Virus record (IMG/VR): IMGVR_UViG_3300028591_000098 | Span: 32,001 to 96,000 of that record | Origin: a virus | Taxonomy: Duplodnaviria > Caudoviricetes | Direction: 5' to 3' (one strand) | DNA: 64,000 nucleotides | Shown here: positions 6,231 to 64,000 of the stretch, in pieces | How the letters are laid out: every line of letters starts with the position of its first letter | How positions within the stretch are numbered: position 1 is the first letter of the stretch | Notes under the pieces: generated by a model | Seen by the model: the letters and a program-made list of their open reading frames with translations, nothing else | Database searches by the model: none | What the model was told of the DNA's origin: nothing | Translations under genes and position numbers: made by a program

Positions 6231-6635
6231 ATGAAATCAATTAAAGATATAATATTAGAAGGAAAAGATCAATCTATTATATCAACATTTAAAGATGGAG
6301 AAAATTCAATGCTTTCAATGATCGCTAAGCGTATTGAAAAATGGGATAAAAATTCAGGTAAACATTCTCAAGAACCAATGTTTTTGACAGACATTAATTT
6401 TTCAAATATGTCATGGGAAACTGTTGATTCTTTAAATATTGAAGTTGGTGATCCAAATAATAGTACTGATAATTCTAAGAATGTTGGTTTATATGATGGA
6501 TTCTTAAAAGAGTATATTATGGGTGAGAAAACTCCTAATGAACAATATATACTTGGTGTATTTATTGATAGATGTTTCTTACCTATTGTTGATAAAGAAA
6601 CATTCGATAAATTTTGGAATAAATTAAATAAATAA
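6231..6635 (+). CDS. putative internal head protein (capsid-targeting-like leader)
   Basis: starts MKSIKDIILE|G. Confidence 0.6.
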   Translation: MKSIKDIILEGKDQSIISTFKDGENSMLSMIAKRIEKWDKNSGKHSQEPMFLTDINFSNMSWETVDSLNIEVGDPNNSTDNSKNVGLYDGFLKEYIMGEKTPNEQYILGVFIDRCFLPIVDKETFDKFWNKLNK

Positions 6636-6637
6636 TT

Positions 6638-7387
6638 ATGAAAGATTTATATACATACCTATTAGAAGAAAAAATCTTAGATAATAAATCCATATATCTT
6701 TGGAATTATGTTCAAATGAATGAATGGAATGAACAACAAATACTTAAAAAACTTGAAGATACATTAATTGATTTTGGAATGAAATGTACTTTTGTTATGG
6801 TAGATGTTGCTAAAAATAAAAATTATCAAGAAGAGCATGATTATCCTATAAAACTTAGAGATGCAGCAATTAAAGCATCAAAAGAGTATAAATCATTTGA
6901 TAAGAAAAATGATAAAGAAAAGGAAAAATGGATTCTTAACAAAATTGAAGAAATTAAAAAGAATGCAGAATATTTAACTAAAGATGATGGACGTTTAAAA
7001 CATTTAGTTAAAGATACTAATAAGGTTCCATTGATAGTTCCCCCAACAAAAATAGATTTAACAACAATTGGATTAAATGATTTCAATATACATATTAAAT
7101 CAGATATTCATAATCAAATGAGCGAAAGGGTTATTAAATGGAAATCTGATAATGTTAAAGAATTATCTAAAGAAATATTTGATGCATTTCCAAAGAATGA
7201 TGAATTTAAAGAACATTTTAAAGGATTCGCAATATATACCAAAAATCAAGTAATAAACAAATTTGATTCAATATATATAACATTTATGTTTGATGATGAA
7301 TTTGAAAACACATTAGAAAAAAATATTAAAAGATTCTCAGATAAAATGCGTGATTTATATGCATCAGGAGAATATATGGGAGACTAA
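6638..7387 (+). CDS. putative internal head protein (capsid-targeting-like leader)
   Basis: starts MKDLYTYLLE|E. Confidence 0.55.
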   Translation: MKDLYTYLLEEKILDNKSIYLWNYVQMNEWNEQQILKKLEDTLIDFGMKCTFVMVDVAKNKNYQEEHDYPIKLRDAAIKASKEYKSFDKKNDKEKEKWILNKIEEIKKNAEYLTKDDGRLKHLVKDTNKVPLIVPPTKIDLTTIGLNDFNIHIKSDIHNQMSERVIKWKSDNVKELSKEIFDAFPKNDEFKEHFKGFAIYTKNQVINKFDSIYITFMFDDEFENTLEKNIKRFSDKMRDLYASGEYMGD

Positions 7388-8040: not shown

Positions 8041-8718
8041 ATGAAAAACTTACAAGATATAATACAAGAAAAACTTCAAATAGGAAGTAAAACAAAAGTT
8101 AGTTCACATAAATATCAACCAAAAAATAGAGATGAATTAAAAGAATTAGTAGATCATCTTATTGAAGAAAGAGGATTATTTGCTAATTTAAATGACATTG
8201 ATACTTCTAAAATAGATGATATGTCTAAATTATTTTTTGAATCAAACTTTAATGGTGACATATCTAAATGGGATGTAAGTAATGTTGAAAATATGTTTCG
8301 TATTTTTAGCCGTTCTAATTTTAATGGCGATATATCTAATTGGGATGTAAGTAAAGTAGAAAATATGGAATGTATGTTCTCAGCATGTGAATTTAATAAA
8401 GATATATCGAAGTGGAACGTAAGTAATGTCAAAAATATGGGTGGTATGTTTGCTAATGGTTTTTTTGATAAAGATATATCAAAATGGGATGTTAGTAATG
8501 TAACTAATATGGACGAAATGTTTGAAAATTCTGTATTTAAAGGTGATATATCAAAATGGGACGTACGTAATGTTGAAGATATGTATTGTATGTTTTATAA
8601 TTCCAAATTTAATGGTGATATATCTAAATGGAATGTTAAAAAATGTAAAAAAATGAGTTTTATGTTTGATGAATCTCCTTTAAAAAATCATCCACCTAAA
8701 TGGTATAGTGAGAAATAA
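8041..8718 (+). CDS. DUF285/BspA-like repeat protein (6 repeats) with capsid-targeting-like leader
   Basis: MKNLQDIIQEKLQIGSK leader; 24-aa FNGDISKWDVSNVxxMxxMF repeats; PPKWY cap. Confidence 0.85.
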   Translation: MKNLQDIIQEKLQIGSKTKVSSHKYQPKNRDELKELVDHLIEERGLFANLNDIDTSKIDDMSKLFFESNFNGDISKWDVSNVENMFRIFSRSNFNGDISNWDVSKVENMECMFSACEFNKDISKWNVSNVKNMGGMFANGFFDKDISKWDVSNVTNMDEMFENSVFKGDISKWDVRNVEDMYCMFYNSKFNGDISKWNVKKCKKMSFMFDESPLKNHPPKWYSEK

Positions 8719-8722
8719 TAAT

Positions 8723-9268
8723 ATGAAAAACTTACAAGACATAATACAGGAGAAACTCCAAATTGGATCTAAATCTAAAATTAGTAGTTATAAGTATCAC
8801 CCAAAAGATAGAGATGAATTGATAAAAATAATCAAAACATTATTAGATGAACGCGGAAAAGATGCAAATTTAAACGATATTGATACATCTAAAATAACTG
8901 ATATGTCTTATTTATTTAAATGGTTTGATCCTCATAATATAGATATATCTAAATGGGATTTATCCAATGTTACTGATATACATGGTATGTTTTCTGGATG
9001 TAATAAATTTAATTGTGATTTGTCTAATTGGAATGTATCTAATGTTAAAAATATGGGTGTTATGTTTAATGGTTGCGAAAAATTTAATTCGGATTTAAGC
9101 GAATGGGACATATCTAATGTTAAAAATATGTATGGTATGTTTTATGATTGTAAAAATTTTAATTCAGATTTAAATAATTGGGATGTATCTAATGTTGAAA
9201 ATACAAGATTTATGTTTATTGGCAGTCCTTTACAAAAAACTCCCCCAAAATGGTATTATAAATCATAA
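8723..9268 (+). CDS. DUF285/BspA-like repeat protein (4 repeats) with capsid-targeting-like leader
   Basis: ATG at 8723 gives the MKNLQDIIQE leader; 25-aa WDVSNV repeats. Confidence 0.85.
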   Translation: MKNLQDIIQEKLQIGSKSKISSYKYHPKDRDELIKIIKTLLDERGKDANLNDIDTSKITDMSYLFKWFDPHNIDISKWDLSNVTDIHGMFSGCNKFNCDLSNWNVSNVKNMGVMFNGCEKFNSDLSEWDISNVKNMYGMFYDCKNFNSDLNNWDVSNVENTRFMFIGSPLQKTPPKWYYKS

Positions 9269-9294: not shown

Positions 9295-9759
9295 ATGAAA
9301 AACTTACAAGACATAATACAAGAGAAACTTCAGATTGGATCTAAATCTAAAATTAGTCAATATAAATATCATCCTAAAAATTGGAATGAATTAAAAGTAT
9401 TATTAAAACGATTATTAAGTGAACGTGGTAAAGATGCTGATTTAAATGATATTGATATATCTAAAATAACTAATATGGCAAGGTTATTTATTGGTTTAGA
9501 TCCTCATAATATAGATATATCTAAATGGAACGTATCTAATGTAACAAATATGGGGGACATGTTTGATGGATGTAAAAACTTTGATTCAGACTTAAGTGAA
9601 TGGGATGTATCTAATGTTAAAGATATGGATGGTATGTTTTATTTATGTAAAAATTTTAATTCAGATTTAAGTGAATGGGATGTATCTAAAGTAAAAAATA
9701 TGAGATTCATGTTTAATGGTAGTCGACTAGAAAAAAATCCACCGAAATGGTATAAATAA
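9295..9759 (+). CDS. DUF285/BspA-like repeat protein (3 repeats) with capsid-targeting-like leader
   Basis: MKNLQDIIQE leader; WDVSNV repeats; NPPKWYK cap. Confidence 0.85.
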   Translation: MKNLQDIIQEKLQIGSKSKISQYKYHPKNWNELKVLLKRLLSERGKDADLNDIDISKITNMARLFIGLDPHNIDISKWNVSNVTNMGDMFDGCKNFDSDLSEWDVSNVKDMDGMFYLCKNFNSDLSEWDVSKVKNMRFMFNGSRLEKNPPKWYK

Positions 9760-11150: not shown

Positions 11151-11169
11151 ACTTAAATATTTTAAAGTT

Positions 11170-11197
11170 AAAAAGAGACACCCGAGTGTCTCTTTTT
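11170..11197. terminator. bidirectional intrinsic terminator
   Basis: aaaaagagacac-ccga-gtgtctcttttt hairpin between convergent genes. Confidence 0.8.
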
Positions 11198-21604: not shown

Positions 21605-21687
21605 TTTTAAAAAATTATTTATTTATTTATGATAATCTTCAATATATTTAATATCTTTATAATTATCAATTGTTATCTTCATATACT

Positions 21688-26643: not shown

Positions 26644-27075
26644 TTAATTTTCACACAAGTCTAAACTTATCAATTTAACATTTTTTATAGTATATATTGG
26701 GTTGCCATTTTCATCTATTTTTTGATTACCTTCTTCATCTAAAACTGGTTCTCTATCACCTAACATACGTGGATTCAATTTAAATTCGTAACCTTTATCC
26801 ATAAGTTCTTTAACTACTTTACCTTTAGGAGTATCTAATAATTCAATTTTACCATATACTTGATTATTTTCAATCCAAATATTTTCCACCTTCCCAGCCG
26901 CATTAATTAAATTATTACTTAAAAAATTTTCATAATCTGGATGAAGTTCACATATTTTATTACCTTCTTTATTAAATTTTTCTATAGCTTTTTTCATCAT
27001 ATTAGAATCATAAATTCTTCCATTATGATTAGGATGATTAAGCTCTCCCATAATACATCTTAAATCTAATTCCAT
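26644..27075 (-). CDS. prohead protease (T4 gp21-like) paralog, probably inactive
   Basis: NHNGRIY, ELHP, VYGKIELLDTPKG motifs; catalytic SSRG.G replaced by NPRMLG. Confidence 0.7.
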   Translation of the reverse strand: MELDLRCIMGELNHPNHNGRIYDSNMMKKAIEKFNKEGNKICELHPDYENFLSNNLINAAGKVENIWIENNQVYGKIELLDTPKGKVVKELMDKGYEFKLNPRMLGDREPVLDEEGNQKIDENGNPIYTIKNVKLISLDLCEN

Positions 27076-28178: not shown

Positions 28179-29006
28179 TTATAATTTTGATAGTAATGTT
28201 ATAATTGTAATTGATTTTGGAACAAAATTTGATATTACTCCATTAATACATTGACTGATTGTTTCTCCAGAAGATATTGTGTCATCTAAAATCAATATAT
28301 CTTTACCATCAATTTTTGATCTTATATCTTCATCATACTCAGTACTTATATATTTTATATATTTTAAATATTTTTTATTCATCATTTTTACCTCAAATGA
28401 TGTCCCTTTCATTCTTCTAAAACTACGATGAATTTCGGCAATCACTTTATTAAATTCATTTGGGTAATCTTTTTGTATTTGTTCTTTATCAATTAAATCA
28501 TCATCAATAATTTCTTCAATAGATAATTTAACAAAAAATTCATTTAATATGTCTTTAGACTTTATTTGATCCGAAATGATTTTCATGAATTTTTCATTAA
28601 TATCACTTGTTGATGGTGTTACGATGATAGTATCATATTGTGAATTTATCTTTTTACAAATACTTAAAAATCTTTTAATATACTTATAAATTTCTTCATT
28701 CGTTATATTAAATTTCCATCCATATTTATTCTTTAATGCATATATAAAAGGATTTCCATCTCTTTGTTGATTATCTATATCATATAACTTTGTTCTCTTA
28801 AATATTGATATGACATCATATTCTTTATATTTTGAATATACCGGATTATTTACTAATGAAAAGTCAATACCATGATTATGTGTATCTGTCAATGATACTG
28901 TTTTAGATATTGGATCAATATTTAAGCCCTCAACAATATATGAATCAAGTTCATTTATGTCAGTACTATTAAATGATTCTTTTATTATTTGTGAAAGTGA
29001 TTTCAT
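28179..29006 (-). CDS. type I phosphoribosyltransferase-fold protein with capsid-targeting-like leader
   Basis: MKSLSQIIKE|S leader; PRPP-binding loop ILILDDTISSGETI; DGNPFIYALK. Confidence 0.75.
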   Translation of the reverse strand: MKSLSQIIKESFNSTDINELDSYIVEGLNIDPISKTVSLTDTHNHGIDFSLVNNPVYSKYKEYDVISIFKRTKLYDIDNQQRDGNPFIYALKNKYGWKFNITNEEIYKYIKRFLSICKKINSQYDTIIVTPSTSDINEKFMKIISDQIKSKDILNEFFVKLSIEEIIDDDLIDKEQIQKDYPNEFNKVIAEIHRSFRRMKGTSFEVKMMNKKYLKYIKYISTEYDEDIRSKIDGKDILILDDTISSGETISQCINGVISNFVPKSITIITLLSKL

Positions 29007-37648: not shown

Positions 37649-38983
37649 TTACTTATTTACTGCGTTTATTTCTGAAATTGAATTTATAATTAATTGTGGT
37701 GTTCCAATAAATTTATTTAATGTTAAACAATTAGTATATGACATAGCTGAACGTAAATAACTAATCATATTATCTACCCAACATTTAAGTGTATATTTTA
37801 CTGGTAAATATTTTGTAATTCCTTCAGCTGTCTTTGTTTTTGTACCATTTATAGATTTTTGACCATCGGCAGAAGCCATACCAAAGAATTTTACTTTTAT
37901 ATTTCCAAGATATTGTTGTTGTTTTAAATTTGCATACTTAACTATATAGTTTAATTTATTTAATTTATATTGATAGTTATTATTAAAATCTGTATCGAAA
38001 TATTCAGAATTTACTGTCATAAATTTTTCGTATTCATTTTTCTCATCTTTACATAACATATCTATATAATCATTTTTATATTGCGCATACCATTTATTAT
38101 CAATTATTTCAAAATTTTCATAATTATTCAAATCAATATCTTGAACTTCATTATTATCATTCTTTAATATTTTTTCACCTGCAGATTCTATACATTGTGA
38201 AAATAAACTACCAATCATAACATAATCTGCACCAAGAGCAAATGCTTTAATTACATGATCATAATTACGTATGCCACCATCAGCAACAATTTTTGGAAAT
38301 AATGATTCAACAAATTCTGGTTCACCTAAATTGTCTCGTAATGTTATTGCATTTTTCTTTTCTTTATAACATTCATCAATAAGAGATGCTTGTGGGTAAT
38401 GAATTGACACATTAGATGTAGTAATGCATCCAGAACCACCACCTATACCAACTCTTATATAGTCAATAACTCTACTCTTTGCCAAATAATTTAAATCACA
38501 AATCCATCTATATGTCTTAGGATTAGCAATATTTCCAGTCATTATAATTAATTTATATTTATTGGCAATTGCATTTTTCTTTGCATTATGACATATATCA
38601 TATAATGATTTCATATGTCCATTTGCAATATCGATACAAATATTATATGTGATATGTTTTTTTCTTTCATTTGCATTATCTATAAATAAATCAATAAATT
38701 CTTTCAATGATAACGCTACCCAAGCGTCATCTATTAACATTTCTTCTTTACGTATTTCTAAATCTATATTTCTTGGTAATATTGGTATAATTCCATTATG
38801 TAAAAAATCTACTATATTTTTATCATTAACTACACTTGCCATAGGTGCAGTAAATATTGGTAAAAATGAATCTGTATCTTCTAAAAATGGATCACATTCT
38901 AAACGTGAATTTATTGTAGTTATAGATTCCGGTATAATTGTTACGTCATTATATGAATAACCTGTTTTATTAATTAATCCCAT
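37649..38983 (-). CDS. GMP reductase / IMP dehydrogenase family enzyme with internal insertion
   Basis: APMASV, DIANGH, GNIA, RVGIGGGSGCIT, ADGGI, GADYVMIGS, GMAS, EG, LRSAMSY. Confidence 0.85.
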   Translation of the reverse strand: MGLINKTGYSYNDVTIIPESITTINSRLECDPFLEDTDSFLPIFTAPMASVVNDKNIVDFLHNGIIPILPRNIDLEIRKEEMLIDDAWVALSLKEFIDLFIDNANERKKHITYNICIDIANGHMKSLYDICHNAKKNAIANKYKLIIMTGNIANPKTYRWICDLNYLAKSRVIDYIRVGIGGGSGCITTSNVSIHYPQASLIDECYKEKKNAITLRDNLGEPEFVESLFPKIVADGGIRNYDHVIKAFALGADYVMIGSLFSQCIESAGEKILKNDNNEVQDIDLNNYENFEIIDNKWYAQYKNDYIDMLCKDEKNEYEKFMTVNSEYFDTDFNNNYQYKLNKLNYIVKYANLKQQQYLGNIKVKFFGMASADGQKSINGTKTKTAEGITKYLPVKYTLKCWVDNMISYLRSAMSYTNCLTLNKFIGTPQLIINSISEINAVNK

Positions 38984-52720: not shown

Positions 52721-53695
52721 TTAAATATTTAATTTGTTTCTAAAATATTCAATTGTTTTAATTAATCCTTCATGTAATTCAATTTTTGGTGTATATCCAA
52801 ACATTTTATATGCTTTAGATATATCTGCTTTACGTTGGAGAGGATCATCTTTAGGTAATTCCTTAAATACAATTTCTGATGTTGATTCTGGAATTAATTC
52901 TAAAACTAAATTAGCTAATTCATTTATTGTAAATTCTTCTGGATTACCTATATTTACTGGACCAAACTCATCATTTTTCATAAATTCGATCATCCCATGT
53001 ATTAAATCATCTATGTATTGAAATGATCTAGTTTGATTACCATCTCCATATATAGTTATTGGTTTATTAATTAATGCTTGACATACAAAATTAGATATTA
53101 CTCTTCCATCATCTGGATCCATATAAGGACCATATGTATTAAATATTCTAATTATTTTACAATTAACACCAAGTTTACGACATTCATATAATATTGTTTC
53201 TGCTATACGTTTACCTTCATCATAGCAAGATCTTGGACCAATAATATTTACATTTCCAAAATATGATTCATTTTGTGGATGATGATTTATATCTGGATTG
53301 CCATAAACTTCCGAAGTTGAAGCATGTAATAATTTTGCATCATAATATTTTGTCAATTTACAAATATCGTCAACTGCCAATGAAGCTTTAATTGTTTCTA
53401 TTGGGTATTTTAAATATTTTGGTGGTGATGCTGGACATGCCAAATTATAAATTTCATCAACAAAATTATAGAAAAAATCTTCTATAATATCTTTTAAAGC
53501 AATAAAAGTACCTTTATCAGTAATATCAGCCACCCAACAACAATAATTCTTATTACTTAAAAATTTATTTACATTTGATAATTTACCTGTATAAAAATTA
53601 TCTATACACATTATCTTATTTCCTTCTTCTAATAGTTTTTCGGTAAGATTTGTCCCAATAAAACCAGCGCCTCCAAATATTATTATATGTTTCAT
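52721..53695 (-). CDS. UDP-glucuronate decarboxylase (UDP-xylose synthase), SDR family
   Basis: GGAGFIG, IYNLACPASP, ASTSEVYG, RSCYDEGKR, RIFNTYGP, DGRVISNF. Confidence 0.9.
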   Translation of the reverse strand: MKHIIIFGGAGFIGTNLTEKLLEEGNKIMCIDNFYTGKLSNVNKFLSNKNYCCWVADITDKGTFIALKDIIEDFFYNFVDEIYNLACPASPPKYLKYPIETIKASLAVDDICKLTKYYDAKLLHASTSEVYGNPDINHHPQNESYFGNVNIIGPRSCYDEGKRIAETILYECRKLGVNCKIIRIFNTYGPYMDPDDGRVISNFVCQALINKPITIYGDGNQTRSFQYIDDLIHGMIEFMKNDEFGPVNIGNPEEFTINELANLVLELIPESTSEIVFKELPKDDPLQRKADISKAYKMFGYTPKIELHEGLIKTIEYFRNKLNI

Positions 53696-53700
53696 ATTTA

Positions 53701-53892
53701 TTAATTATGTATATTACTTATTGGTTCTTTCTTTATATGAAGTCTAAATGCTGGGAATTTACTTTCTTGTTCATCCTTTTCTCTTTTAGCTTCTTCTTCT
53801 GTATTATAATAATTATACATTGTATTATCATCATAATATAATACATAAATATCTTGTGAATTTTCTAAAATAAAATTTTTAATATTTTTCAT
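53701..53892 (-). CDS. putative internal head protein (capsid-targeting-like leader)
   Basis: MKNIKNFILE|N. Confidence 0.6.
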   Translation of the reverse strand: MKNIKNFILENSQDIYVLYYDDNTMYNYYNTEEEAKREKDEQESKFPAFRLHIKKEPISNIHN

Positions 53893-53913
53893 AAATTAAA
53901 TTATATTATATAT

Positions 53914-54303
53914 TTATTCTTTTACGACAATTACCATTATATTATTAGATTCTATCATATTAAGTATGTCATCATAACTATATGTATGTTCATCAGAATT
54001 AAAGAAATCATTATCTATATTATACACCTTAACTCTAAATTCTTCATTAGTATGACATACCCAAGTTGATTTATTTTTTAATTCTGCTAAAAATATATGT
54101 TTATCTTTCCAATATTCATCATTATGTTTTATTTTATCAATAAGTTTATCAAATGATTCCTTATCATATGCATATAATGTTGGTTCTATTTCTTCATTGG
54201 TTTGTTCACATCTTATTTTTATAGAATCAATTGTTCTACCTTCTAATAATGAAATTTTGGAAATTTCATAATTTTCCAATATAAAGTCTTTTAAATTTTT
54301 CAT
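53914..54303 (-). CDS. putative internal head protein (capsid-targeting-like leader)
   Basis: MKNLKDFILE|N; second site LLE|G. Confidence 0.6.
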   Translation of the reverse strand: MKNLKDFILENYEISKISLLEGRTIDSIKIRCEQTNEEIEPTLYAYDKESFDKLIDKIKHNDEYWKDKHIFLAELKNKSTWVCHTNEEFRVKVYNIDNDFFNSDEHTYSYDDILNMIESNNIMVIVVKE

Positions 54304-54304
54304 A

Positions 54305-54769
54305 TTATTTATACCATTTAGGTGGATTTTTTTGTAGTGGACTTGCAGAAAACATATTTGTCATATCTTCAACATTTGATACATTCCATTTTGATAAATC
54401 TGAATTAAATTTCATACATTTATAAAACATATATTTCATATTTGTAACATTAGATACATCCCAATTAGACAAATTCGAATTGAAATTTTTACAGTTATAA
54501 AATATCCATTCCATAGTAGTAACATTAGATACATCCCATTTAGATATATCTATATTATGAGGATCTAAGTATTCAAATAAATCAGACATATCAGTTATTT
54601 CAGATGTATCAATATCATTTAGATCTGCATTGTTACCACGCTCATCTAATAATTGTTTTAATAATTTTTGAAGTTCATCTTTATCTTTTGGATAATAATT
54701 ATATCCACTAACTTTAGTTTTACTACCTATTTGAAGTTTTTCTTGTATTATATCTTGTAAGTTCTTCAT
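54305..54769 (-). CDS. DUF285/BspA-like repeat protein (3 repeats) with capsid-targeting-like leader
   Basis: MKNLQDIIQE leader; WDVSNV repeats; NPPKWYK. Confidence 0.85.
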   Translation of the reverse strand: MKNLQDIIQEKLQIGSKTKVSGYNYYPKDKDELQKLLKQLLDERGNNADLNDIDTSEITDMSDLFEYLDPHNIDISKWDVSNVTTMEWIFYNCKNFNSNLSNWDVSNVTNMKYMFYKCMKFNSDLSKWNVSNVEDMTNMFSASPLQKNPPKWYK

Positions 54770-54774
54770 ATTAT

Positions 54775-55317
54775 TTATTCTTTATACCATTTAGGTGGAT
54801 TTTTTTCTATTCCACTTTTCCAAAACATTTTAAACATTGATTTAACTTTAGATACATTCCAGTTATTTAAATTTGCTTTGAAATTTTTACAATTATTAAA
54901 CATTTGTTCCATATTTGTAACGTTAGAAACATTCCAATTACTTATATCAGAATTAAAATTATAACAGTCGAAAAACATAGAATCCATATTTATATTATTT
55001 GACATATCCCAATTACTTAAATCAGAATTAAAATGCTTACAATCATAAAACATATTATAAGTATAAATAACGTTAGACATATCCCACTCCGATATATCTA
55101 TATTATGTGGATCTAATCCATCAAATAAATATGACATATCTGTTATTTTAGATGTATCAATATCATTTAGATCTGCATCTTTACCACGTTCTTTTAATAA
55201 TTTTTTTAATATTTCCAATAAATCATCAGTTGTATTGGGGTGATACTTATATTTAGTAATCTTAGATTTAGATCCTATTTGAAGTTTTTCTTGTATTATA
55301 TTTTTTAAATTTTTCAT
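54775..55317 (-). CDS. DUF285/BspA-like repeat protein (4 repeats) with capsid-targeting-like leader
   Basis: MKNLKNIIQE leader; repeats; NPPKWYK. Confidence 0.85.
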   Translation of the reverse strand: MKNLKNIIQEKLQIGSKSKITKYKYHPNTTDDLLEILKKLLKERGKDADLNDIDTSKITDMSYLFDGLDPHNIDISEWDMSNVIYTYNMFYDCKHFNSDLSNWDMSNNINMDSMFFDCYNFNSDISNWNVSNVTNMEQMFNNCKNFKANLNNWNVSKVKSMFKMFWKSGIEKNPPKWYKE

Positions 55318-55352
55318 TAGTTTGCAATATTGTACGATTTATTACATATATG

Positions 55353-56408
55353 TTATAATAAGTTATCATCATCACCGCGAGAATCATCATCTTCATCATC
55401 TTCATCATCAGAATTATTCTTATTATCATCTTCTTCTTTTTTATCTTTCTTATCATTTTCTTTATCTTCTTCATCATCTTCTTTCTTATCTTCTCTTTCT
55501 TTACGTTCTCCTGTTAATGAGAATATAGCTGGATCATCAGTTTTATCGGCTTCTAATAAATCAAGAATTGATTCAATAAGTTTCTTTACATCATCTGGTA
55601 ATTCTATTAAAGAATCTTCTGCAAAATCTTGTACCCATATAGCCTTTTCACCTTTACCAAAAATATGCATAAGTGAACGTGTGTTTTCAATAGATATTTC
55701 TTTAAATTCTCCTTCACCTTCTGCTTTACCAAATGGCATCTTCTTAGTATATTTCCAACGAAGTGCTATAGCTTCTTCACCACTCTTAAACTTAATTGCA
55801 GAGAAATAATATTCTCTTGGTAAAGATATTTCATTAGATACTAAAAGTTCAAGTTGTTTAGCAGCTTTAACTTTATCAGGACCATCAAGAAGTTCTAAAA
55901 CCTTTTCAACAGTTTCTGACTTCATTTCTTCTTCACCATCATCTTCTTTAATAATTTGAGTAAATTCAAATTCATTTAAAAATGATTCATTACATTCTCC
56001 TGGGCATGGACATATTGATTTAACCATTGTTGCAGGATTTTTAGCAGTAGCCACATCTTCAGGAGAAAAATATACAACCCAATACATACCAAGATTAATT
56101 TTAGTCATTTTAGTAAGACCTTGTTGCATAATATATCCAGCTAATGTAGTAAATCTATCTAATGGATTAAATAATACATTATTAATAGATTCTTCATTAA
56201 CAAATTTTGTACTATGTAATTTAATAGATACGTTATCTTCACCAACCGCAGCAACTACACCTAATCTTAAACAAAATAAATTATTAATATTTGTCAATAT
56301 ATTTTCTATAGGTGTATAATGATTAGTTACACCTGTTGTTGTCAATGCATTTCCAGGTTGTACATCGGCAGTTTTAGCTGATTCAACTATTTGTGTAAAT
56401 TTTCTCAT
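55353..56408 (-). CDS. putative internal head protein with very acidic C-terminal tail
   Basis: MRKFTQIVE|S leader; internal LNE and IKE sites; D/E/K low-complexity tail. Confidence 0.6.
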   Translation of the reverse strand: MRKFTQIVESAKTADVQPGNALTTTGVTNHYTPIENILTNINNLFCLRLGVVAAVGEDNVSIKLHSTKFVNEESINNVLFNPLDRFTTLAGYIMQQGLTKMTKINLGMYWVVYFSPEDVATAKNPATMVKSICPCPGECNESFLNEFEFTQIIKEDDGEEEMKSETVEKVLELLDGPDKVKAAKQLELLVSNEISLPREYYFSAIKFKSGEEAIALRWKYTKKMPFGKAEGEGEFKEISIENTRSLMHIFGKGEKAIWVQDFAEDSLIELPDDVKKLIESILDLLEADKTDDPAIFSLTGERKEREDKKEDDEEDKENDKKDKKEEDDNKNNSDDEDDEDDDSRGDDDNLL

Positions 56409-56436
56409 TTGTTATTATTATATTTATTTATTCATA

Positions 56437-57144
56437 TTATTCTTTATTAATATACCATTTTGGAGGATTTTTTTCTATTTCACTTTTCCAAAACATTTTT
56501 CTCATTTTTACATTTTTAGATACGTCCCATTTTGATAAATCTGAATTAAAATTTTCGCATCTATAGAACATATATGTCATATCGTTAACATTAGATACAT
56601 CCCAATTACTTAAATCTGAATTAAATTTTTCACACTGTGAAAACATACTAACAGTATTTGTAACTTTAGATACATCCCATTTACTTAAATCAGATTCAAA
56701 GTTTTCACAATCATAAAACATATCTTTCATATTTGTAACTTTAGATATATCCCAGTTAGACAAATCTGAATTAAAATTATGACAACCTTCAAATACACCT
56801 TTCATACTTCTAACATTAGACACATCCCATTTTGATAAATCCGAATTAAAGTTTGTACAATTCCAAAACATAAATTCCATGTTTTCTACATTAGACACAT
56901 TCCATTGCGATATATCTATATTATGTGGATCTAATCCATTAAATAAATCTGATAAATCTGACATATCAGTTATTTTAGATGTATCAATATCATTTAGATC
57001 AGCATCTTTACCACGTTCATCTAATAATTGTTCTATTAATTTTCCAAGTTCATCTTTATCTTTAGGATGATATTTATATGAACTAACTTTTGTTTTACTG
57101 CCAATTTGAAGTTTTTCTTGTATTATATCTTGTAAGTTTTTCAT
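56437..57144 (-). CDS. DUF285/BspA-like repeat protein (6 repeats) with capsid-targeting-like leader
   Basis: MKNLQDIIQE leader; repeats; NPPKWY. Confidence 0.85.
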   Translation of the reverse strand: MKNLQDIIQEKLQIGSKTKVSSYKYHPKDKDELGKLIEQLLDERGKDADLNDIDTSKITDMSDLSDLFNGLDPHNIDISQWNVSNVENMEFMFWNCTNFNSDLSKWDVSNVRSMKGVFEGCHNFNSDLSNWDISKVTNMKDMFYDCENFESDLSKWDVSKVTNTVSMFSQCEKFNSDLSNWDVSNVNDMTYMFYRCENFNSDLSKWDVSKNVKMRKMFWKSEIEKNPPKWYINKE

Positions 57145-57145
57145 A

Positions 57146-57691
57146 TCAATTTTCCTTATACCATTTTGGTGGATTTTTTTCTAAAGGACACCCATTAAAT
57201 GCTCCTCTCATGTCTTTAATTTTAGATACATCCCAATTTGATAAATTTGACTTAAAATCATAACAACCATAAAATATATTTAATATATGTTCAACATTAG
57301 ATACATCCCATTTAGATAAATCAGAATTAAAATTATAACATTTATAAAACATCCATCCCATATTATTTACATTTGATACATTCCAATTTGATAAATCAGA
57401 ATTGAAATCATAACATTCGGCAAACATACCCCACATATCTTTAACATTAGATACATCCCATTTAGATATATCTATATTATGAGGATCTAAATTATCAAAT
57501 AACTCTGTCATATCAGTTATTTTAGATGTATCTATATCATTTAAATTAGCATCCTTACCACGTTCATCCAATAATTGGTTTAATAATTTTCTAAGTTCAT
57601 CTTTATCTTTAGGGTAATATTTATATGAACTAACTTTTGTTTTACTGCCAATTTGAAGTTTTTCTTGTATTATATATTGTAAGTTTTTCAT
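57146..57691 (-). CDS. DUF285/BspA-like repeat protein (4 repeats) with capsid-targeting-like leader
   Basis: MKNLQYIIQE leader; repeats; NPPKWYK. Confidence 0.85.
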   Translation of the reverse strand: MKNLQYIIQEKLQIGSKTKVSSYKYYPKDKDELRKLLNQLLDERGKDANLNDIDTSKITDMTELFDNLDPHNIDISKWDVSNVKDMWGMFAECYDFNSDLSNWNVSNVNNMGWMFYKCYNFNSDLSKWDVSNVEHILNIFYGCYDFKSNLSNWDVSKIKDMRGAFNGCPLEKNPPKWYKEN

Positions 57692-57724
57692 TATTATAAA
57701 TGTTTATGTATAATTAATAATAAA

Positions 57725-58390
57725 TTAAAATTGTCTCCAAAAGTGAAATATCTGTTGGAGAGTTGCTTTAGAAAAGTGTCCTTCAGTAAAACATGCGGTC
57801 GGTACTAATCTAGTAGGTAATACATATGATGCACCTCTTAATACTGGTATATACATTTTTATTCCAAAACCAATTTTTGCATTTACTTTCGCTAAATGTT
57901 TTATTTCAGAATAAGAAATCCACGTGTTTGGTTTACCTGTTACTTCATTAAAATTCTTATCAAAATAAGGTTTAAAATGTTTATATACCTCATTAATTAT
58001 TTTAGTTCTGGTAAATGGTGGATAATAATGTAAATTTATTCCAACCTCTCTAATATTACCATCATCTGTTCTTGTTATACCACAAAATAACGTTAATGGA
58101 GAAGCATCATAATACGCCAGTTCTTCTTTATATTTAGGTTGAGAATAATGAAATAAAACAATTTGACCAGGTAATAAATATTTCTTTGTAGGTTTTGTTA
58201 ATGATAATAATTCTTTATATGCTAATTTAGAACGAATAGATGTTGGACGTTTAGCTAATGGATGTTCATTAATTGACTCCAACATCTTAAAATATTTTAT
58301 TTCATCTTCATCATAAATCTTTCTATCTAAATCTTTAAGACTAAATATGTGACCTAATGTTGTTTTTTCTGGCTTATGTATTATTGGCAT
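57725..58390 (-). CDS. DNA end protector protein, T4 gp2-like
   Basis: PGQIVLFHY..PKYK..L.YYD..PL and GINLHYYPP..R motifs. Confidence 0.8.
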   Translation of the reverse strand: MPIIHKPEKTTLGHIFSLKDLDRKIYDEDEIKYFKMLESINEHPLAKRPTSIRSKLAYKELLSLTKPTKKYLLPGQIVLFHYSQPKYKEELAYYDASPLTLFCGITRTDDGNIREVGINLHYYPPFTRTKIINEVYKHFKPYFDKNFNEVTGKPNTWISYSEIKHLAKVNAKIGFGIKMYIPVLRGASYVLPTRLVPTACFTEGHFSKATLQQIFHFWRQF

Positions 58391-58433
58391 ATCAAAATAA
58401 AAAATTATTTTTATTTAAAAATAACTATATAAT

Positions 58434-59573
58434 ATGAATATACTTATTGTAGGCGCTGGATTATTTGGTGTTACTATAGCTAGACTATTAACTAATAAAG
58501 GTCATGTATGTACAATAATAGATCAACGAAATCATATTGGTGGTAATTGTTATGATGAACCATATTCAATTGATAATCATACAATGACTGTTCACAAATA
58601 TGGACCTCATGTATTTCATACAAGTAATCAACAAGTTTGGACTTTTGTTAATAAATATGCTAAATTTAATAATTTTAGAACTAATATATTAGCAAAAGAT
58701 GATAATAATAAGTTATATCATCTTCCATTTAATATGAATACATTTTACGATATATTTGGTATATTTAATATAGAAAAAGTTAAGAATATAATACAACAAG
58801 AAATTAAAGACGCAAATATAACCAAAATAACGAATCTTGAAGAAAAAGCAATTTCTATGGTAGGTACAACTGTTTATAATATATTAATAAAAAACTATAC
58901 AGAAAAACAATGGAATTGTAAATGTACTGAACTTTCTCCAGATATAATATCTAGATTACCTTTACGTTTTTATTTTGATAATAATTATTTTAATGATATT
59001 TATCAAGGTGTTCCTATAGGCGGATATACTAAATTAATAGAAAATATTATAAATGGAGTTGATAATGAAAAACCAATTAAATATATTTTAAATACTAAAT
59101 TTGATTTATCAATATATGACAACTATGATAAGATAATTTATTGTGGATCTATAGATGAATTATTAAATTACAAATTTGGATATTTAGAATATAGAAGTTT
59201 AAAATTTGAAAATACTGAATATATATTTGATTTTATAAATTCAAATGGTTGTGCTCATATAAATTTAGTAGGAACACAAAGAGGAACTAGAGAAATTGAA
59301 CATGTATATTATACTCCTGAAAGTTTAGAATATTTTATTGGTCAAAAATTAATTAAAACATTGGAAGTACCTGATGACTGGGATTTAACTAAAGAAAGAT
59401 TTTATAGTATTAATAACAATAAAAATAATGATTTATATGAAAAATATGTAAATTATTTAGAAAAAACATATCCAAATATTATATTGGGAGGTAGACTCGG
59501 TTTATATAAATATTTAGATATGGATGATGTTATATTGTTAGCTTTTGATAAATCAAATGTTATTAACATGTGA
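58434..59573 (+). CDS. glf: UDP-galactopyranose mutase
   Basis: VGAGLFG, R.HIGGNCYD, HKYGPHVFHT, YTEKQW, RLPLR, YQGVP..GYT, GGRLG.YKYLDMD. Confidence 0.92.
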   Translation: MNILIVGAGLFGVTIARLLTNKGHVCTIIDQRNHIGGNCYDEPYSIDNHTMTVHKYGPHVFHTSNQQVWTFVNKYAKFNNFRTNILAKDDNNKLYHLPFNMNTFYDIFGIFNIEKVKNIIQQEIKDANITKITNLEEKAISMVGTTVYNILIKNYTEKQWNCKCTELSPDIISRLPLRFYFDNNYFNDIYQGVPIGGYTKLIENIINGVDNEKPIKYILNTKFDLSIYDNYDKIIYCGSIDELLNYKFGYLEYRSLKFENTEYIFDFINSNGCAHINLVGTQRGTREIEHVYYTPESLEYFIGQKLIKTLEVPDDWDLTKERFYSINNNKNNDLYEKYVNYLEKTYPNIILGGRLGLYKYLDMDDVILLAFDKSNVINM

Positions 59574-60599
59574 ATTAATTAATTTATCATATACCAATGT
59601 TTTTTCAAAAGCATTAATAAATATTTTATTTTCTTTGAATATATTAAATGTAGATAATAATTTGGTAAAAAAATTAACATTACAATTAATAAATAAATTA
59701 ACTAACCATTCAATTGTATATCCAAAAAATCTCCAATTATTACAATATGTATTTAATCCATAATTTGTTTCAGGATTAAATATTTCTTTATAATATTTAA
59801 AATGTTGAAAATTTTGATAAAATAATTTATATTTATCTACAATTGAATGTTCGATATTATATATTATTTTATCAAAATTTTTTCTAAAATATTCAATAAG
59901 ATAAAAATTTACAAAATCCACACATTCATTATAATCGAATAAATTGTAGTGATATTTGTTTTCTAAATAATTTATATAACCATTTATAAATTTCATCATA
60001 TTTATAAACATTATTTTATTACATGTAAACATTGATCTTGCAATAAAATAATGTTCATATTTTTTTAATTCAAAACGTTTACATTTATTTATTATTTTAT
60101 ATTGGTCTATAATTGTTTGTTGTTTTAAATATTCTATTATATCTTCACAAATATATAAAGGATAACCCATGCTCATAAAATATTCGAATATATACCAATA
60201 ATTATTATATTCATATTCTATCTTATTTAATTCTTCATTTGATATGTGATTTAATTGTAATCCATCATGATGGAAATTTCTTTCATAATATTGTATTTCA
60301 TTACGATTAATTTTATATTCATTAATTAAATAAATATTAGGAATACGTCTATAATGGCCTAATGACACAGTATCATATTTTTCATATAATTTATTTTCAT
60401 AAATATAATATAATGTACAATACTCATTATATATATGATTTAAATTGTTTATATTTTTTAAATCAATTTGTTTATTTGTATTAAAAAAAATATAGTTTGA
60501 TGTTGCATCATCAAACAAATATTTTATTACATCTTCATAAACTTTATTATCTTCTTCACTTAAATGTGTTTGTAAAAAAATTCCATGATTTAAATCCAT
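59553..60599 (-). CDS. DUF4422-like glycosyltransferase
   Basis: NINNLN..YNEYCTLYYIYEN...GHYRR and R.FGY..E.L motifs. Confidence 0.6.
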   Translation of the reverse strand: MDLNHGIFLQTHLSEEDNKVYEDVIKYLFDDATSNYIFFNTNKQIDLKNINNLNHIYNEYCTLYYIYENKLYEKYDTVSLGHYRRIPNIYLINEYKINRNEIQYYERNFHHDGLQLNHISNEELNKIEYEYNNYWYIFEYFMSMGYPLYICEDIIEYLKQQTIIDQYKIINKCKRFELKKYEHYFIARSMFTCNKIMFINMMKFINGYINYLENKYHYNLFDYNECVDFVNFYLIEYFRKNFDKIIYNIEHSIVDKYKLFYQNFQHFKYYKEIFNPETNYGLNTYCNNWRFFGYTIEWLVNLFINCNVNFFTKLLSTFNIFKENKIFINAFEKTLVYDKLINSHVNNI

Positions 60600-60601
60600 T
60601 T

Positions 60602-61051
60602 CTAATCATAATATTTTTGAATATATTGAAATACATCAGGAATACATTTAGTTTGCTTTTCTTTAATAGTTTCTTCATTAAACCATTTATATCTTGAATG
60701 TTCTCTCGATATTTTTACTTCTGGTTTTGTTTCTAAATTAACTATGAAATATTGTGTGTCTGAACCATTATCATGTACTTCTTTTCCAAAAGACTTCATA
60801 GAATGTTCTTCATTAAATGATAGTGTTATTCCAGTTTCTTCTTTAATTTCTCTAATTAAAGCATCTTTAGGCGATTTATCTTTTTCATCAATAGCACCAC
60901 CAACAAACCCCCATTTTCCACCAAATAGTTTAACATATCCAGCTCTTTGTAATAAAAGAATTTCATCAGTATCTTTACAAACTAAAATACCATCTACATA
61001 ATGTTTTATTTCTTCTTTGTTTTCCTTTATATATTTTAAAATAGATTTCAT
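60602..61051 (-). CDS. Nudix hydrolase with capsid-targeting-like leader
   Basis: MKSILKYIKE|N; Nudix box GGAIDEKDKSPKDALIREIKEETGI; S.EH..YKW. Confidence 0.85.
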   Translation of the reverse strand: MKSILKYIKENKEEIKHYVDGILVCKDTDEILLLQRAGYVKLFGGKWGFVGGAIDEKDKSPKDALIREIKEETGITLSFNEEHSMKSFGKEVHDNGSDTQYFIVNLETKPEVKISREHSRYKWFNEETIKEKQTKCIPDVFQYIQKYYD

Positions 61052-61052
61052 A

Positions 61053-61610
61053 TTATATAAATTTTATTTTATATTTATACCATTTAGGTGGATTTTTTTG
61101 TAAAGGACAATTATAAAACATATTATTTATATTTTCAACATTAGATACATCCCATTTACTTAAATCTGAATTAAATTTCTCACACCCAGAAAACATATAA
61201 TACATATCTGTAACTTTGGATACGTCCCATTCATTTAAATCTGAATTGAAATTATAACAACATTCAAACATACATCTCATATTTGTAACATTAGATACAT
61301 CCCATTTTGATAAATCTGAATTAAAATCATAACAATTATAAAACATACATTTCATATTTTCAACATTCGATACGTCCCATTGTGATATATTTATATTATG
61401 AGGATTTAAATTATTAAATAAATATGCCATTTCTGTTATATTAGATGTATCAATATCATTTAGATTTGCATTTTTACCACGTTCTTTTAATAATTGTTTT
61501 AATAATACTCTAAGTTCATCCCAATTTTTCGGGTGATATTTATATCCACCAACTTTAGTTTTACTACCAATTTTAAGACCTTCTTTTATATAATTACTTA
61601 AAAACTTCAT
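61053..61610 (-). CDS. DUF285/BspA-like repeat protein (4 repeats) with capsid-targeting-like leader
   Basis: MKFLSNYIKE|GLKIGSKTKV; repeats; NPPKWYK. Confidence 0.85.
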   Translation of the reverse strand: MKFLSNYIKEGLKIGSKTKVGGYKYHPKNWDELRVLLKQLLKERGKNANLNDIDTSNITEMAYLFNNLNPHNINISQWDVSNVENMKCMFYNCYDFNSDLSKWDVSNVTNMRCMFECCYNFNSDLNEWDVSKVTDMYYMFSGCEKFNSDLSKWDVSNVENINNMFYNCPLQKNPPKWYKYKIKFI

Positions 61611-62082
61611 TGTATTCTTCTTTTAAATATTGTTTTATTTGATTAAATCTTTTTAATAAATATTTATCACTTACTGATAATCGAGATGTTGGTAATTTAG
61701 ATATTTTTTTTGTTTTTTCTTCATAATATTTATAATAAAAAATTAAAAACTCTTTTGTTTCTTTATCAAAATATTCTTTAAGTTTATCATATTTTTCTGG
61801 AAGATTTAATCTAATAAAATCTATAACATCTTTATTATCAAATTCCTTTTTATTTTTTCTATTTTCTCTTAATAATTCAGAAATTTGAAGTTCTATTTCA
61901 TGTATTTTATTAGATTCTATTCCATATTTTCTTGCATAGTGTTGTTTTTCCTTTTTTTCTATTGCATAAGAAACATTATTATAATCATCCCTCATTTCTT
62001 CTTCAGAATAATTAAAATTATTTACCTTTGTATTACTTCCTATTTTAATACCTTCCTTTATATAATTAACTATGTATTTCAT
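61594..62082 (-). CDS. helical protein carrying the same extended leader as the DUF285 family
   Basis: MKYIVNYIKE|GIKIGSNTKV followed by an unrelated sequence. Confidence 0.65.
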   Translation of the reverse strand: MKYIVNYIKEGIKIGSNTKVNNFNYSEEEMRDDYNNVSYAIEKKEKQHYARKYGIESNKIHEIELQISELLRENRKNKKEFDNKDVIDFIRLNLPEKYDKLKEYFDKETKEFLIFYYKYYEEKTKKISKLPTSRLSVSDKYLLKRFNQIKQYLKEEYNEVFK

Positions 62083-62091
62083 AAAAATAAA

Positions 62092-62712
62092 TTAAAAATT
62101 TTTATACCAATTTAGTTCATTACCTTCTAGTGGTGAATCCATAAACATATGATTTATATTACATAATTTACTAACTTTCCATTTTGATAAATCATTATTA
62201 AATATAATACTTCCTCTAAACATATACTCCATATTTTTAACATTAGATACATCCCAATTAGACAAATCTGAATTAAATTTCTCACACCCGTAAAACATAC
62301 AATACATATCTGTAACGTTAGATACATCCCAATTAGACAAATCAGAATTAAAATTATAACAACATTTAAATATACTTTTCATATCTGTAACTTTAGATAC
62401 ATTCCATTTACTTAAATCTGAATTAAAATCAAAACAATTATAAAACATATATTTCATATTTTTTACATTAGATACATTCCATTTAGATATATCTATATTA
62501 TGAGGATTCAAATTATTAAATAGAAGATCCATATCAGTTATTTTAGATGTATCAATATCGTTTAAATCTGCATCTTTACCACGTTCCTTTAATAATTGTT
62601 TTAATATTTTTCTAAGTTCATCGTTATCTTTTGGATAATAATTATATACTCTAACTTTTGTTTTACCGCCAATTTGAAGTTTTTCTTGTATTATATCTTG
62701 TAAATTTTTCAT
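62092..62712 (-). CDS. DUF285/BspA-like repeat protein (5 repeats) with capsid-targeting-like leader
   Basis: MKNLQDIIQE leader; repeats; divergent cap ELNWYK. Confidence 0.85.
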   Translation of the reverse strand: MKNLQDIIQEKLQIGGKTKVRVYNYYPKDNDELRKILKQLLKERGKDADLNDIDTSKITDMDLLFNNLNPHNIDISKWNVSNVKNMKYMFYNCFDFNSDLSKWNVSKVTDMKSIFKCCYNFNSDLSNWDVSNVTDMYCMFYGCEKFNSDLSNWDVSNVKNMEYMFRGSIIFNNDLSKWKVSKLCNINHMFMDSPLEGNELNWYKNF

Positions 62713-62714
62713 AT

Positions 62715-63410
62715 TTAATTTCCCTTATACCATTTTGGTGGATTTTTTTCTAATGGAGTATCATAAAACATATAGTCCATATCTCTAACTTTAGAAACGT
62801 TCCATTTATTAAGATCAGAATTAAAAATATGACAATATTCAAATACACCTTTCATATTTGTTACGTTAGATACATTCCATTTACTTAAATCTGAATTAAA
62901 GTTTTCACAATCTCTAAACATCCATGACATATCTGTAACTTTAGAAACGTTCCATTCATTAAGATCTGAATTAAAATTATGACAACTTTCAAATGTGCCT
63001 TTCATATTTGTTACGTTAGATACATCCCATGCACTTAAATCTGAATTAAATTGTTTACATTGAAAAAACGTACCAAACATATTTTTAGTATTAGACACAT
63101 CCCATTTTGATAAATCACAATTAAAATGTATACAATTAAAAAACATACCTTCCATTGTATTAACGTTAGACACATCCCATTGTGATATATCAATATTATG
63201 AGGATCTAAATATGCAAATAATCTTGACATATCAGTTATTTCAGACGTATCAATATCATTTAGATCTGCATCTTTACCACGTTCATTTAATAATTGTTTT
63301 AATAATTTTTTAAGTTTATCTTTATCTTTTGGATGATATTTATATGAACTAACTTTTGTTTTACCACCAATTTGAAGTTTCTCCAGTATTATGTCTTGTA
63401 AGTTTTTCAT
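62715..63410 (-). CDS. DUF285/BspA-like repeat protein (6 repeats) with capsid-targeting-like leader
   Basis: MKNLQDIILE leader; repeats including a 150-bp internal duplication. Confidence 0.85.
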   Translation of the reverse strand: MKNLQDIILEKLQIGGKTKVSSYKYHPKDKDKLKKLLKQLLNERGKDADLNDIDTSEITDMSRLFAYLDPHNIDISQWDVSNVNTMEGMFFNCIHFNCDLSKWDVSNTKNMFGTFFQCKQFNSDLSAWDVSNVTNMKGTFESCHNFNSDLNEWNVSKVTDMSWMFRDCENFNSDLSKWNVSNVTNMKGVFEYCHIFNSDLNKWNVSKVRDMDYMFYDTPLEKNPPKWYKGN

Positions 63411-63413
63411 ATT

Positions 63414-63794
63414 TTACCAACCACATTTATCTGAATTAGCATAATCCCATTCAATTCTATAATCTTCTTCTTCCTTAGTTAAATTTAATTCACCTTCGTT
63501 TTCTACACCTTTAATTACACATGCAGTAACAAATTTAGTTAAACGTTTTCTATCTTCTCCAGTTAAATGTCCATTAACTTTACGAAGAATTATTTGACAT
63601 AATTTTGATATTACTGATGAATTTTCTAATTTTTCAATTTCAAATTCACCTTTTTTATATTTTTTAACTAAATTATCTATTAATGGTTTAAAATAATGTT
63701 TATATATATCTGAATTATTATCCAATTCCATACAAGCATCAAATATTATTTTATTTGCATTAGATTCCGTAATATATTCTTTAATGTTCTTCAT
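63414..63794 (-). CDS. putative internal head protein (capsid-targeting-like leader)
   Basis: MKNIKEYITE|S. Confidence 0.6.
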   Translation of the reverse strand: MKNIKEYITESNANKIIFDACMELDNNSDIYKHYFKPLIDNLVKKYKKGEFEIEKLENSSVISKLCQIILRKVNGHLTGEDRKRLTKFVTACVIKGVENEGELNLTKEEEDYRIEWDYANSDKCGW

Positions 63795-63807: not shown

Positions 63808-63999
63808 TTATTTTTTTATTCTAACATATAAATTAATACCACCATCGGCATCATATATTTCTCCAATTTTTAATGCTTTAACAGCCTTTTCTCCAGTATC
63901 ATCACCTTCAAAATCTTTAGTCCATTGTTTTAAATCATCTTCAGTATAAGGTGTAATTATTTGACTATCAGTATTAATATATAACCATTTTACATCTTT
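63808..63999 (-). CDS. 3' end of a hypothetical protein entering from beyond the window
   Basis: open frame ...KWLYINTDSQ...YDADGGINLYVRIKK*. Confidence 0.55.
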   Translation of the reverse strand, partial: KDVKWLYINTDSQIITPYTEDDLKQWTKDFEGDDTGEKAVKALKIGEIYDADGGINLYVRIKK

Positions 64000-64000
64000 A

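Follow-up and report, generated by a model that had tools for sequence, protein, structure and literature searches.

Variable DUF285 repeat proteins of an uncultivated huge phage share a T4-like N-terminal leader and are candidates for packaged capsid cargo

The closest known systems to the one described here are the internal proteins of phage T4, with their capsid targeting sequence (CTS), and the head paralog families of giant phages. In the T4 record, IPII and IPIII both start with MKTYQEFIAE, and the vertex protein gp24, which is trimmed by gp21, starts with MAKINELLRE, whereas exterior proteins such as Hoc carry no tag. The first ten residues of IPIII are enough for packaging; targeting depends mainly on residues 4 and 7 and processing on residues 8 and 10, and CTS-like tags are known on varied proteins of T4 relatives (Kuhn and Thomas review, PMC9026906). 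Among giant phages, SPN3US encodes family B, a 20-member head paralog family of unknown role (PMC5694885). Here we analyzed a 64,000-nucleotide stretch (the window) comprising bases 32001–96000 of one 163,395-bp IMG/VR viral contig (25% G+C, estimated to be ~64% complete), in which ten paralogous repeat proteins of the DUF285 family (PF03382) begin with a 10-residue leader that resembles the T4 tag. A sequence-only reading of this DNA had proposed that the leader loads these proteins into the capsid, from which they are injected as a diversified panel of binders; the start it quoted for T4 IPII and IPIII is the one in the T4 record. Literature searches turned up no earlier account of capsid targeting for phage DUF285 or BspA proteins.

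As a tag, the leader extends across the whole genome. The pattern M-[KR]-x4-[IFYLV]-[ILV]-x-E stands at the start of 35 of the 241 open reading frames (ORFs) counted on the contig, where 0.6 are expected; the typical form is M-K-x-[IL]-x-x-[YFI]-[IL]-x-E. Among 71 non-DUF285 ORFs chosen only for starting with MK, information content is highest at positions 4, 7, 8 and 10 (0.91, 0.72, 0.60 and 0.83 bits, versus 0.12–0.37 elsewhere). The same four peaks were found independently in G001, a 410-kb relative (97% complete, 29% G+C, 513 ORFs) in which the leader is found on 80 ORFs, including 42 DUF285 genes. Masking the leader separates the 23 tagged non-DUF285 proteins of the contig into 23 families, five of which have G001 orthologs that retain the tag, and the Pfam domains of the tagged enzymes (Nudix, ferritin-like) start only beyond residues 17–19. 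The portal, terminase, baseplate, helicase and RtcB proteins of the contig carry no tag. Within the window DUF285 set, positions 4 and 7 are hydrophobic or aromatic and I8 and E10 are invariant in all ten copies; E10 is also invariant in alignments of 34 and 28 sequences (A2 and A4) that include related loci. The sequence-only reading correctly noticed the tag on the DUF285 genes and missed its spread over the genome; since the tag is a lineage-wide system, the observation is stronger than first stated.

The four constrained leader positions are the four mapped determinants of the T4 CTS. As in T4 IPI, IPII, IPIII and Alt, all processed by gp21, the tag spans ~10 residues with hydrophobic residues at 4 and 7, Ile or Leu at 8 and Glu at 10, and in both systems it is portable onto unrelated proteins. 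A profile built from the contig leaders scored the T4 IPII/IPIII tag at 9.4 bits, against 19–27 bits for its own leaders, and this value exceeds all but four of 206 untagged contig N-termini. Among the DUF285 paralogs, the ratio of nonsynonymous to synonymous divergence (dN/dS) of the leader is 0.09 (dS 1.3), and both Ile codons are used at position 8 and both Glu codons at position 10. Selection on the leader acts on the peptide and not on the DNA, as strong purifying selection at the protein level. A T4-like background is common to both: gp2-like and gp6-like proteins are encoded here, and an S77 protease and a Gp23 capsid protein in relatives. T4 internal-protein loci also change fast between related phages, as the tagged loci do here. 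There are also differences. T4 tags a handful of genes, compared with 35–80 per genome in this lineage; the DUF285 repeat fold, the main cargo family here, is not known among T4 internal proteins; T4 internal proteins are basic, whereas the tagged proteins here are mostly acidic; and packaging and cleavage, known for T4, are predicted here.

The giant-phage head families share another set of features with this system. SPN3US family B and the phiKZ inner-body proteins (PF12699) likewise consist of many small head paralogs in a large myovirus whose protease cuts after Glu, and their copy number varies between relatives, as it does here. They have no sequence relation to the DUF285 paralogs: a Pfam scan of the ten copies returned DUF285 in all, weak Ig_NOMO matches in three and four weak single-copy matches, with PF12699 absent. 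Mass spectrometry identified the members of those families, whose propeptides are often longer than 100 residues, whereas the proteins here have a short T4-like tag and a predicted head location.

The link between the leader and head assembly comes from relatives. G001 and nine other IMG/VR loci encode a 540–585-aa fusion of an S77 (T4 gp21-type) protease and a scaffold (565 aa in relatives with leader-bearing DUF285 genes), in which conserved GELEHPN and ISSR(G/A)AG motifs are followed by an acidic linker. Residue 10 of the fusion is an invariant Glu preceded by [VI]-[FY], and 6–9 tandem EEFAPEVQNW[VI][CT]E repeats (e.g., L057:1414-3111; alignment A3) each offer a hydrophobic-x-Glu potential cleavage site. 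A Gp23-family capsid protein is encoded downstream (E 1.9e-28), followed by two conserved ORFs of ~1,000 aa and ~195 aa that, judging by size and position, may encode tail sheath and tube proteins. The 19 kb just upstream of this head module is filled in G001 by 16 tagged genes on the same strand. L081, L082, L084, L086 and L088 also have tagged genes at this position, including some DUF285 copies, and in L081 the protease-scaffold gene is separated from the capsid gene by a single tagged gene. No close relative in culture was found; Tenacibaculum phage PTm1, a more distant cultured relative whose annotation draws on mass spectrometry, has no leader-bearing ORFs in a 50-kb chunk and so is no proxy for this phage.

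On the contig itself, the only S77 homolog is a 143-aa truncated paralog at 26644..27075 (minus strand) that scores above the Pfam cut-off. It retains the His motif and has Asn-Pro in place of the catalytic Ser-Ser that is invariant in relatives, a state that the capsid-targeting proposal had left out of account. It is surrounded by small non-structural genes, and it resembles the cryptic protease copy of SPN3US (PMC5694885). A search of the contig for a Gp23 capsid protein gave no match. The active protease and capsid genes of this phage presumably lie on the missing third of the genome; with no intact S77 or capsid gene found on the ~64%-complete contig, the protease link rests on relatives.

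The DUF285 family comprises ten intact paralogs in the window and twelve on the contig, intactness being judged under code 11; the further two lie at genome positions 10621-11181 and 21232-21690. All ten window copies score above the Pfam gathering threshold (best E 2e-66; 189.6 bits for the first copy against a cut-off of 25) and align end to end, with 53–64% identity to the first copy over the full length. Each is built of five parts as originally described: a 10-residue leader (MKNLQDIIQE or a near variant), a linker KLQIGSKxKV, an N-cap, 3–6 repeats of 24–25 residues and a C-cap ending in ...PLEKNPPKWYK. The first trio is on the plus strand at 8041..8718 (225 aa, six repeats of 24 aa, leader MKNLQDIIQE), 8723..9268 (181 aa from the ATG at 8723, an upstream GTG at 8708 being less likely; four repeat anchors) and 9295..9759 (154 aa, three repeat anchors). 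The other copies are on the minus strand at 54305..54769 (154 aa), 54775..55317 (180 aa, leader MKNLKNIIQE), 56437..57144 (235 aa, six repeat anchors), 57146..57691 (181 aa), 61053..61610 (185 aa, variant leader MKFLSNYIKE), 62092..62712 (206 aa, divergent C-cap) and 62715..63410 (231 aa, leader MKNLQDIILE). Inspection by eye of the first 20 residues showed charged N-termini with no hydrophobic stretch, signal peptide or lipobox in any of the ten, in agreement with the earlier description.

The repeats combine a near-fixed framework with strongly varying positions, again as first noted. The period is 25 residues in nine of the twelve contig copies and 24 in copy 8041 and one copy outside the window; copy 56437 keeps the 25-residue period and has a 3-residue insertion in its N-cap. 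Numbered from the Trp, positions 0–5, 8, 11, 12, 15 and 18–23 are near-fixed, while positions 6, 7, 9, 10, 13, 14, 16, 17 and 24 vary (entropy 1.6–3.2 bits) and are rich in K, Y, E, G, W and C. The variable block thus covers residues 6–17, plus 24, of each 25-residue turn, and the variable residues appear to fill one contiguous half of each repeat.

An AlphaFold2 (AF2) model of copy 56437, built from 34 sequences, reached a mean predicted local distance difference test (pLDDT) score of 92 and a predicted template modeling score of 0.85. The leader is modeled as a helix over residues 4–14 (pLDDT ~63), linker residues 13–19 fall below pLDDT 50, and beyond the linker the chain winds into a regular solenoid in which a short strand recurs every 25 residues. 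The top Foldseek matches were bacterial leucine-rich repeat (LRR) proteins (4fs7, 4h09, 4gt6), TpLRR and a design based on variable lymphocyte receptors (VLRs), all of them weak (E ~3e-3). The model thus predicts an LRR-like solenoid with a loosely attached leader helix. Because the solenoid has one turn per repeat, positions 6–17 would stack along one of its sides. The sequence-only reading had named structure prediction as a check on whether the variable residues line one concave face; the model gives a solenoid, and within each repeat the variable positions are contiguous.

Divergence between paralogs follows the same division. When 36 paralog pairs are pooled, framework repeat sites have a dN/dS of 0.15, the N-cap ~0.4 and the variable sites 1.6, the last value being biased upward because those sites were picked for being variable. 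dN thus exceeds dS at these pre-chosen sites. No RVT_1 match, as expected of the reverse transcriptase of a diversity-generating retroelement, was found on the ~64%-complete contig, so the DUF285 diversity would be germline paralogy with gain and loss. The antibody- or VLR-like library first envisaged is no more than consistent with the contiguous variable positions within repeats, and no dedicated diversification machinery was found on the incomplete contig.

Gain and loss are visible around the gp2-like DNA end protector gene (57725..58390, minus strand; phrog_429, E 5e-18), which has no leader. It heads a minus-strand run in which four DUF285 genes follow, 57146..57691 being the first, with gaps of at most 35 bp and no terminator-like site; the placement of four copies in this operon had been correctly recognized. 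Orthologs of the gp2-like protein share 86% (G003), 69% (G002) and 62% (G001) identity. The same run contains a 351-aa acidic-tail protein (55353..56408, minus strand) with a leader-like start (I7-V8-E9) and a tail ending in SRGDD-x-LL. It has no Pfam or PHROG match, an Atlas feature search returned nothing and its AF2 model is weak (pLDDT 56). In four genomes its gene is conserved next to the gp2-like gene or within a few genes of it, and in G003 the ortholog starts with the strict leader MKKLTQLLVE. G003 and G002 have kept one gene order (epimerase, a small tagged gene, the 351-aa protein, the gp2-like protein, a Nudix hydrolase and more tagged genes), and this syntenic operon contains no DUF285 gene in either. 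The seven copies at 53.7–63.8 kb are therefore insertions into an otherwise conserved island of tagged genes. Those in the gp2-like operon are recent insertions, with fast turnover between related phages.

Across 47 related loci, the strict leader is present on 111 of 134 DUF285-like ORFs, most of the others being variants or start miscalls, and it is found on 40 of the 120 best database homologs of the DUF285 paralogs. Three DUF285 genes of relatives (L011:10694-11488, L017:11470-12351 and L024:8185-9060) carry tandem double leaders (e.g., MKKLNQYISEAERAFGITKYITEKFRL...), which suggests recombination at the tag.

In the mechanism that we propose, the DUF285 genes would give small, cytoplasmically made proteins consisting of a detachable N-terminal helix, a flexible linker and a solenoid of 3–6 turns between fixed caps. 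Through hydrophobic residues 4 and 7 the protein would bind the scaffold core while the prohead assembles, and the S77 prohead protease would cut after I/L8-x-Glu10. The freed solenoids of 16–26 kDa would stay in the DNA-filled head and exit with the DNA at infection. Of the unrelated tagged protein families that the genome encodes, at least 24 in number, the DUF285 family would then form one cargo class. Its fast turnover and one-sided variation would fit binders aimed at changing host factors, defence proteins or others.

These steps are not equally secure. It is somewhat more likely than not that the leader is a T4-type CTS of this phage lineage, because its constrained positions match those of the T4 CTS, the cargo is unrelated, the peptide is under selection, tagged orthologs are kept and tagged genes are linked to protease-scaffold and capsid genes in relatives; this part of the sequence-only reading was strengthened by purifying selection and by the constraint at positions 4, 7, 8 and 10 on unrelated bodies. 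That the DUF285 proteins are packaged through the leader, cut by the protease and ejected with the DNA as binder cargo is the best explanation we can offer, and our confidence in it is evenly poised. The anti-defence purpose assigned to the panel is plausible and no more than consistent with the contiguous variable residues and with dN above dS at the pre-chosen sites. The widest form of the proposal is unlikely to hold as a whole: that huge gut and rumen phages preload their capsids with dozens of tagged proteins, including a germline library of DUF285 binders, and inject them to neutralize varied host defences before phage expression, with the cargo predictable from sequence.

Several observations weigh against packaging and injection. 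The sole S77 homolog on the contig lacks the catalytic serine, and the leader resembles the T4 tag in pattern rather than in sequence. The tagged proteins are for the most part acidic, whereas T4 internal proteins are basic; 35–80 different cargo proteins is far above T4's number; and the dN/dS of 1.6 is inflated by the choice of variable sites. In a depletion test, cargo bodies were not depleted of [IL]-x-E motifs, and DUF285 bodies hold more of them than chance. The DUF285 fold also appears to be used on the virion exteriors of cultured jumbo phages, as discussed below.

Part of this evidence would be expected if the leader were a shared N-terminal module with a non-packaging role, such as a translation-start or stability element, a degron or a handle for another phage complex, with the DUF285 proteins acting as in-cell host-takeover binders that never enter a capsid. 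Under that account, the acidity of most tagged proteins, the ordinary-looking enzymes among them (Nudix, ferritin-like) and the only moderate score of the T4 tag on the contig leader profile need no special explanation, and neither does a tagged share of 15–20% of all ORFs, which is unprecedented for capsid cargo. A generic start-region effect, on the other hand, would not predict constraint exactly at positions 4, 7, 8 and 10 with Glu10 fixed. Moreover, synonymous sites in the leader are free to vary, tagged genes cluster on one strand beside the protease-scaffold and capsid genes in several genomes, and replication and tail proteins are never tagged; we therefore consider this account rather unlikely. 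Alternatively, the proteins may be packaged through the leader and serve the head itself, as core or inner-body filler, in DNA organization or in pressure control, perhaps being degraded after assembly rather than injected. The T4 protease motif also marks core and shell proteins, as the start of gp24 shows; gp22, gp67 and gp68 are chopped up by prohead processing in T4 (PMC9026906, PMC5694885); SPN3US has its 20-member head family; and the above-chance [IL]-x-E motifs in DUF285 bodies point the same way. A head-service role fits less well with DUF285 copy number and gene presence that differ between close relatives, with strong surface variation on a fixed framework, which is unusual for a purely structural filler, and with an LRR-like fold, a classic binding scaffold. 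It strikes us as quite improbable.

The small DUF285 proteins might instead sit on the virion exterior, as adhesins or as exchangeable accessories of the fibres or head surface that bind receptors, and the paralog set would then widen recognition of hosts or surfaces. DUF285 repeats occur in 1700–2300-aa proteins of Aeromonas phage LAh10, Kosakonia phage Kc263 and Sphingomonas phage PAU (gp103), and those of LAh10 and Kc263 adjoin baseplate genes and have tail-fibre-like N-termini, from which a use of the fold outside the virion would follow. The internal-protein reading had overlooked these giant proteins, and they keep the exterior alternative alive. Bacterial homologs are annotated as BspA-type surface proteins, and the first window trio lies downstream of the baseplate wedge gene. 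The jumbo phages embed the repeats in giant proteins, whereas each cassette here is its own small gene; a simple motif did not locate cassette boundaries in the LAh10 and Kc263 proteins. Against an exterior role, the small proteins have no fibre-attachment domain. The leader is also found on the Nudix hydrolase, the ferritin-like protein and ~20 other unrelated small proteins, which cannot all be fibre parts, and it matches the tag of internal proteins, which T4 exterior proteins such as Hoc lack. This alternative seems to us slightly less probable still than a head-service role.

Should the tag have its T4 function, genome sequence would be enough to list the proteins that uncultivated huge phages package and inject. 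The list would run to 35 or more proteins on this partial genome and 80 in the 97%-complete relative, an order of magnitude beyond the protein delivery so far known from phages. Candidates for first-minute counter-defence would be the DUF285 binders, the Nudix hydrolase and the ferritin-like protein, and for DUF285, a very large family of unknown function, a role as binding scaffold would become testable. The short tag is possibly useful for loading foreign proteins into large capsids.

The contig carries further leader-bearing genes. The Nudix hydrolase (60602..61051, minus strand) has the leader MKSILKYIKE and a Pfam domain from residue 19; its G001 and G003 orthologs retain the leader, while the G002 ortholog starts differently. 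A 162-aa non-DUF285 protein (61594..62082, minus strand) carries a DUF285-type leader and linker (MKYIVNYIKEGIKIGSNTKV), so the module has been shuffled onto other bodies. Also on the minus strand are proteins of 63 aa (53701..53892, MKNIKNFILE), 129 aa (53914..54303, MKNLKDFILE) and 126 aa (63414..63794, MKNIKEYITE), and the 3' part of a gene for a 99-aa protein (63808..64000, MKNIKNYINE) that runs off the window. The first DUF285 trio is preceded by two leader-bearing genes encoding 134 and 249 aa (6231..7387, plus strand), themselves downstream of the baseplate wedge gene, and a 275-aa leader-bearing protein (28179..29006, minus strand) has a weak phosphoribosyltransferase match at its C-terminus. 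Nudix-class and phosphoribosyltransferase-class enzymes take part in phage NAD-restoring counter-defence pathways. Outside the window, a tagged ferritin-like protein (genome 8497-9000; PF00210, E 6e-18) has the leader MKSIYNIINE. A second recurrent N-terminal motif, MGIL(K/N)xIT..., heads several 270–350-aa DUF285-like proteins in the IMG/VR relative L040 and two 500–640-aa proteins of the contig (genome 130107-134142).

Encapsulin cargo-loading peptides offer an analogy only: a short terminal tag brings unrelated enzymes, including ferritin-like ones, into an HK97-fold shell. Those tags are usually C-terminal and uncleaved and serve a shell without DNA, whereas the tagged ferritin-like protein here has an N-terminal leader. 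A virus-encoded expansion of DUF285 genes is also known from Aureococcus anophagefferens virus (AaV), and purified particles contained two of its members (PMC7507832). This giant virus of a eukaryote assembles its capsid in an unrelated way and has no T4-type tag. Database searches returned ~6,500 DUF285 homologs at E ≤ 1e-10, and among the 120 best only four have a signal-peptide-like start. Bacterial DUF285/BspA proteins belong to the same PF03382 family and follow the same pattern of N-cap, repeat and C-cap; they usually have a signal peptide or lipobox, or start at the N-cap, whereas the copies here have a capsid-tag-like leader. The T4-like Campylobacter phage vB_CcoM-IBB_35 encodes a 180-aa DUF285 protein (L092:5004-5546) that starts with MNFYNLIYEK, a near-variant of the leader with hydrophobic-x-Glu at 7–9. 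Its gene is near a Vgr-like baseplate gene, and this cultured phage could be an accessible test case.

The T4-type parts of the window are the gp6-like baseplate wedge (2890-4566) and the gp2-like end protector; portal and large terminase genes are on the contig outside the window, and RtcB and a helicase are encoded on the contig. Through the baseplate protein, the nearest annotated relatives are uncultured huge phages (LR756500 and others), Sphingomonas phage PAU, Tenacibaculum phages and Lak megaphages. Promoter and terminator scans over 52.5–64 kb remained at chance level. The sole 8-mer enriched upstream of genes, AAATGGTATAA, was rejected as a promoter because it encodes the C-cap (KWYK) of the preceding DUF285 gene. 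Sugar-nucleotide genes are interspersed among the tagged genes (window 52721-53695, 58434-59573, 37649-38983 and 36366-37646). They include an NAD-dependent epimerase/decarboxylase-like ORF and a UDP-galactopyranose-mutase-like ORF, both recognized by eye from the sequence, together with a dehydrogenase (PHROG match) and a weak GtrB-like glycosyltransferase match, and these genes may have a role in DNA or glycan modification.

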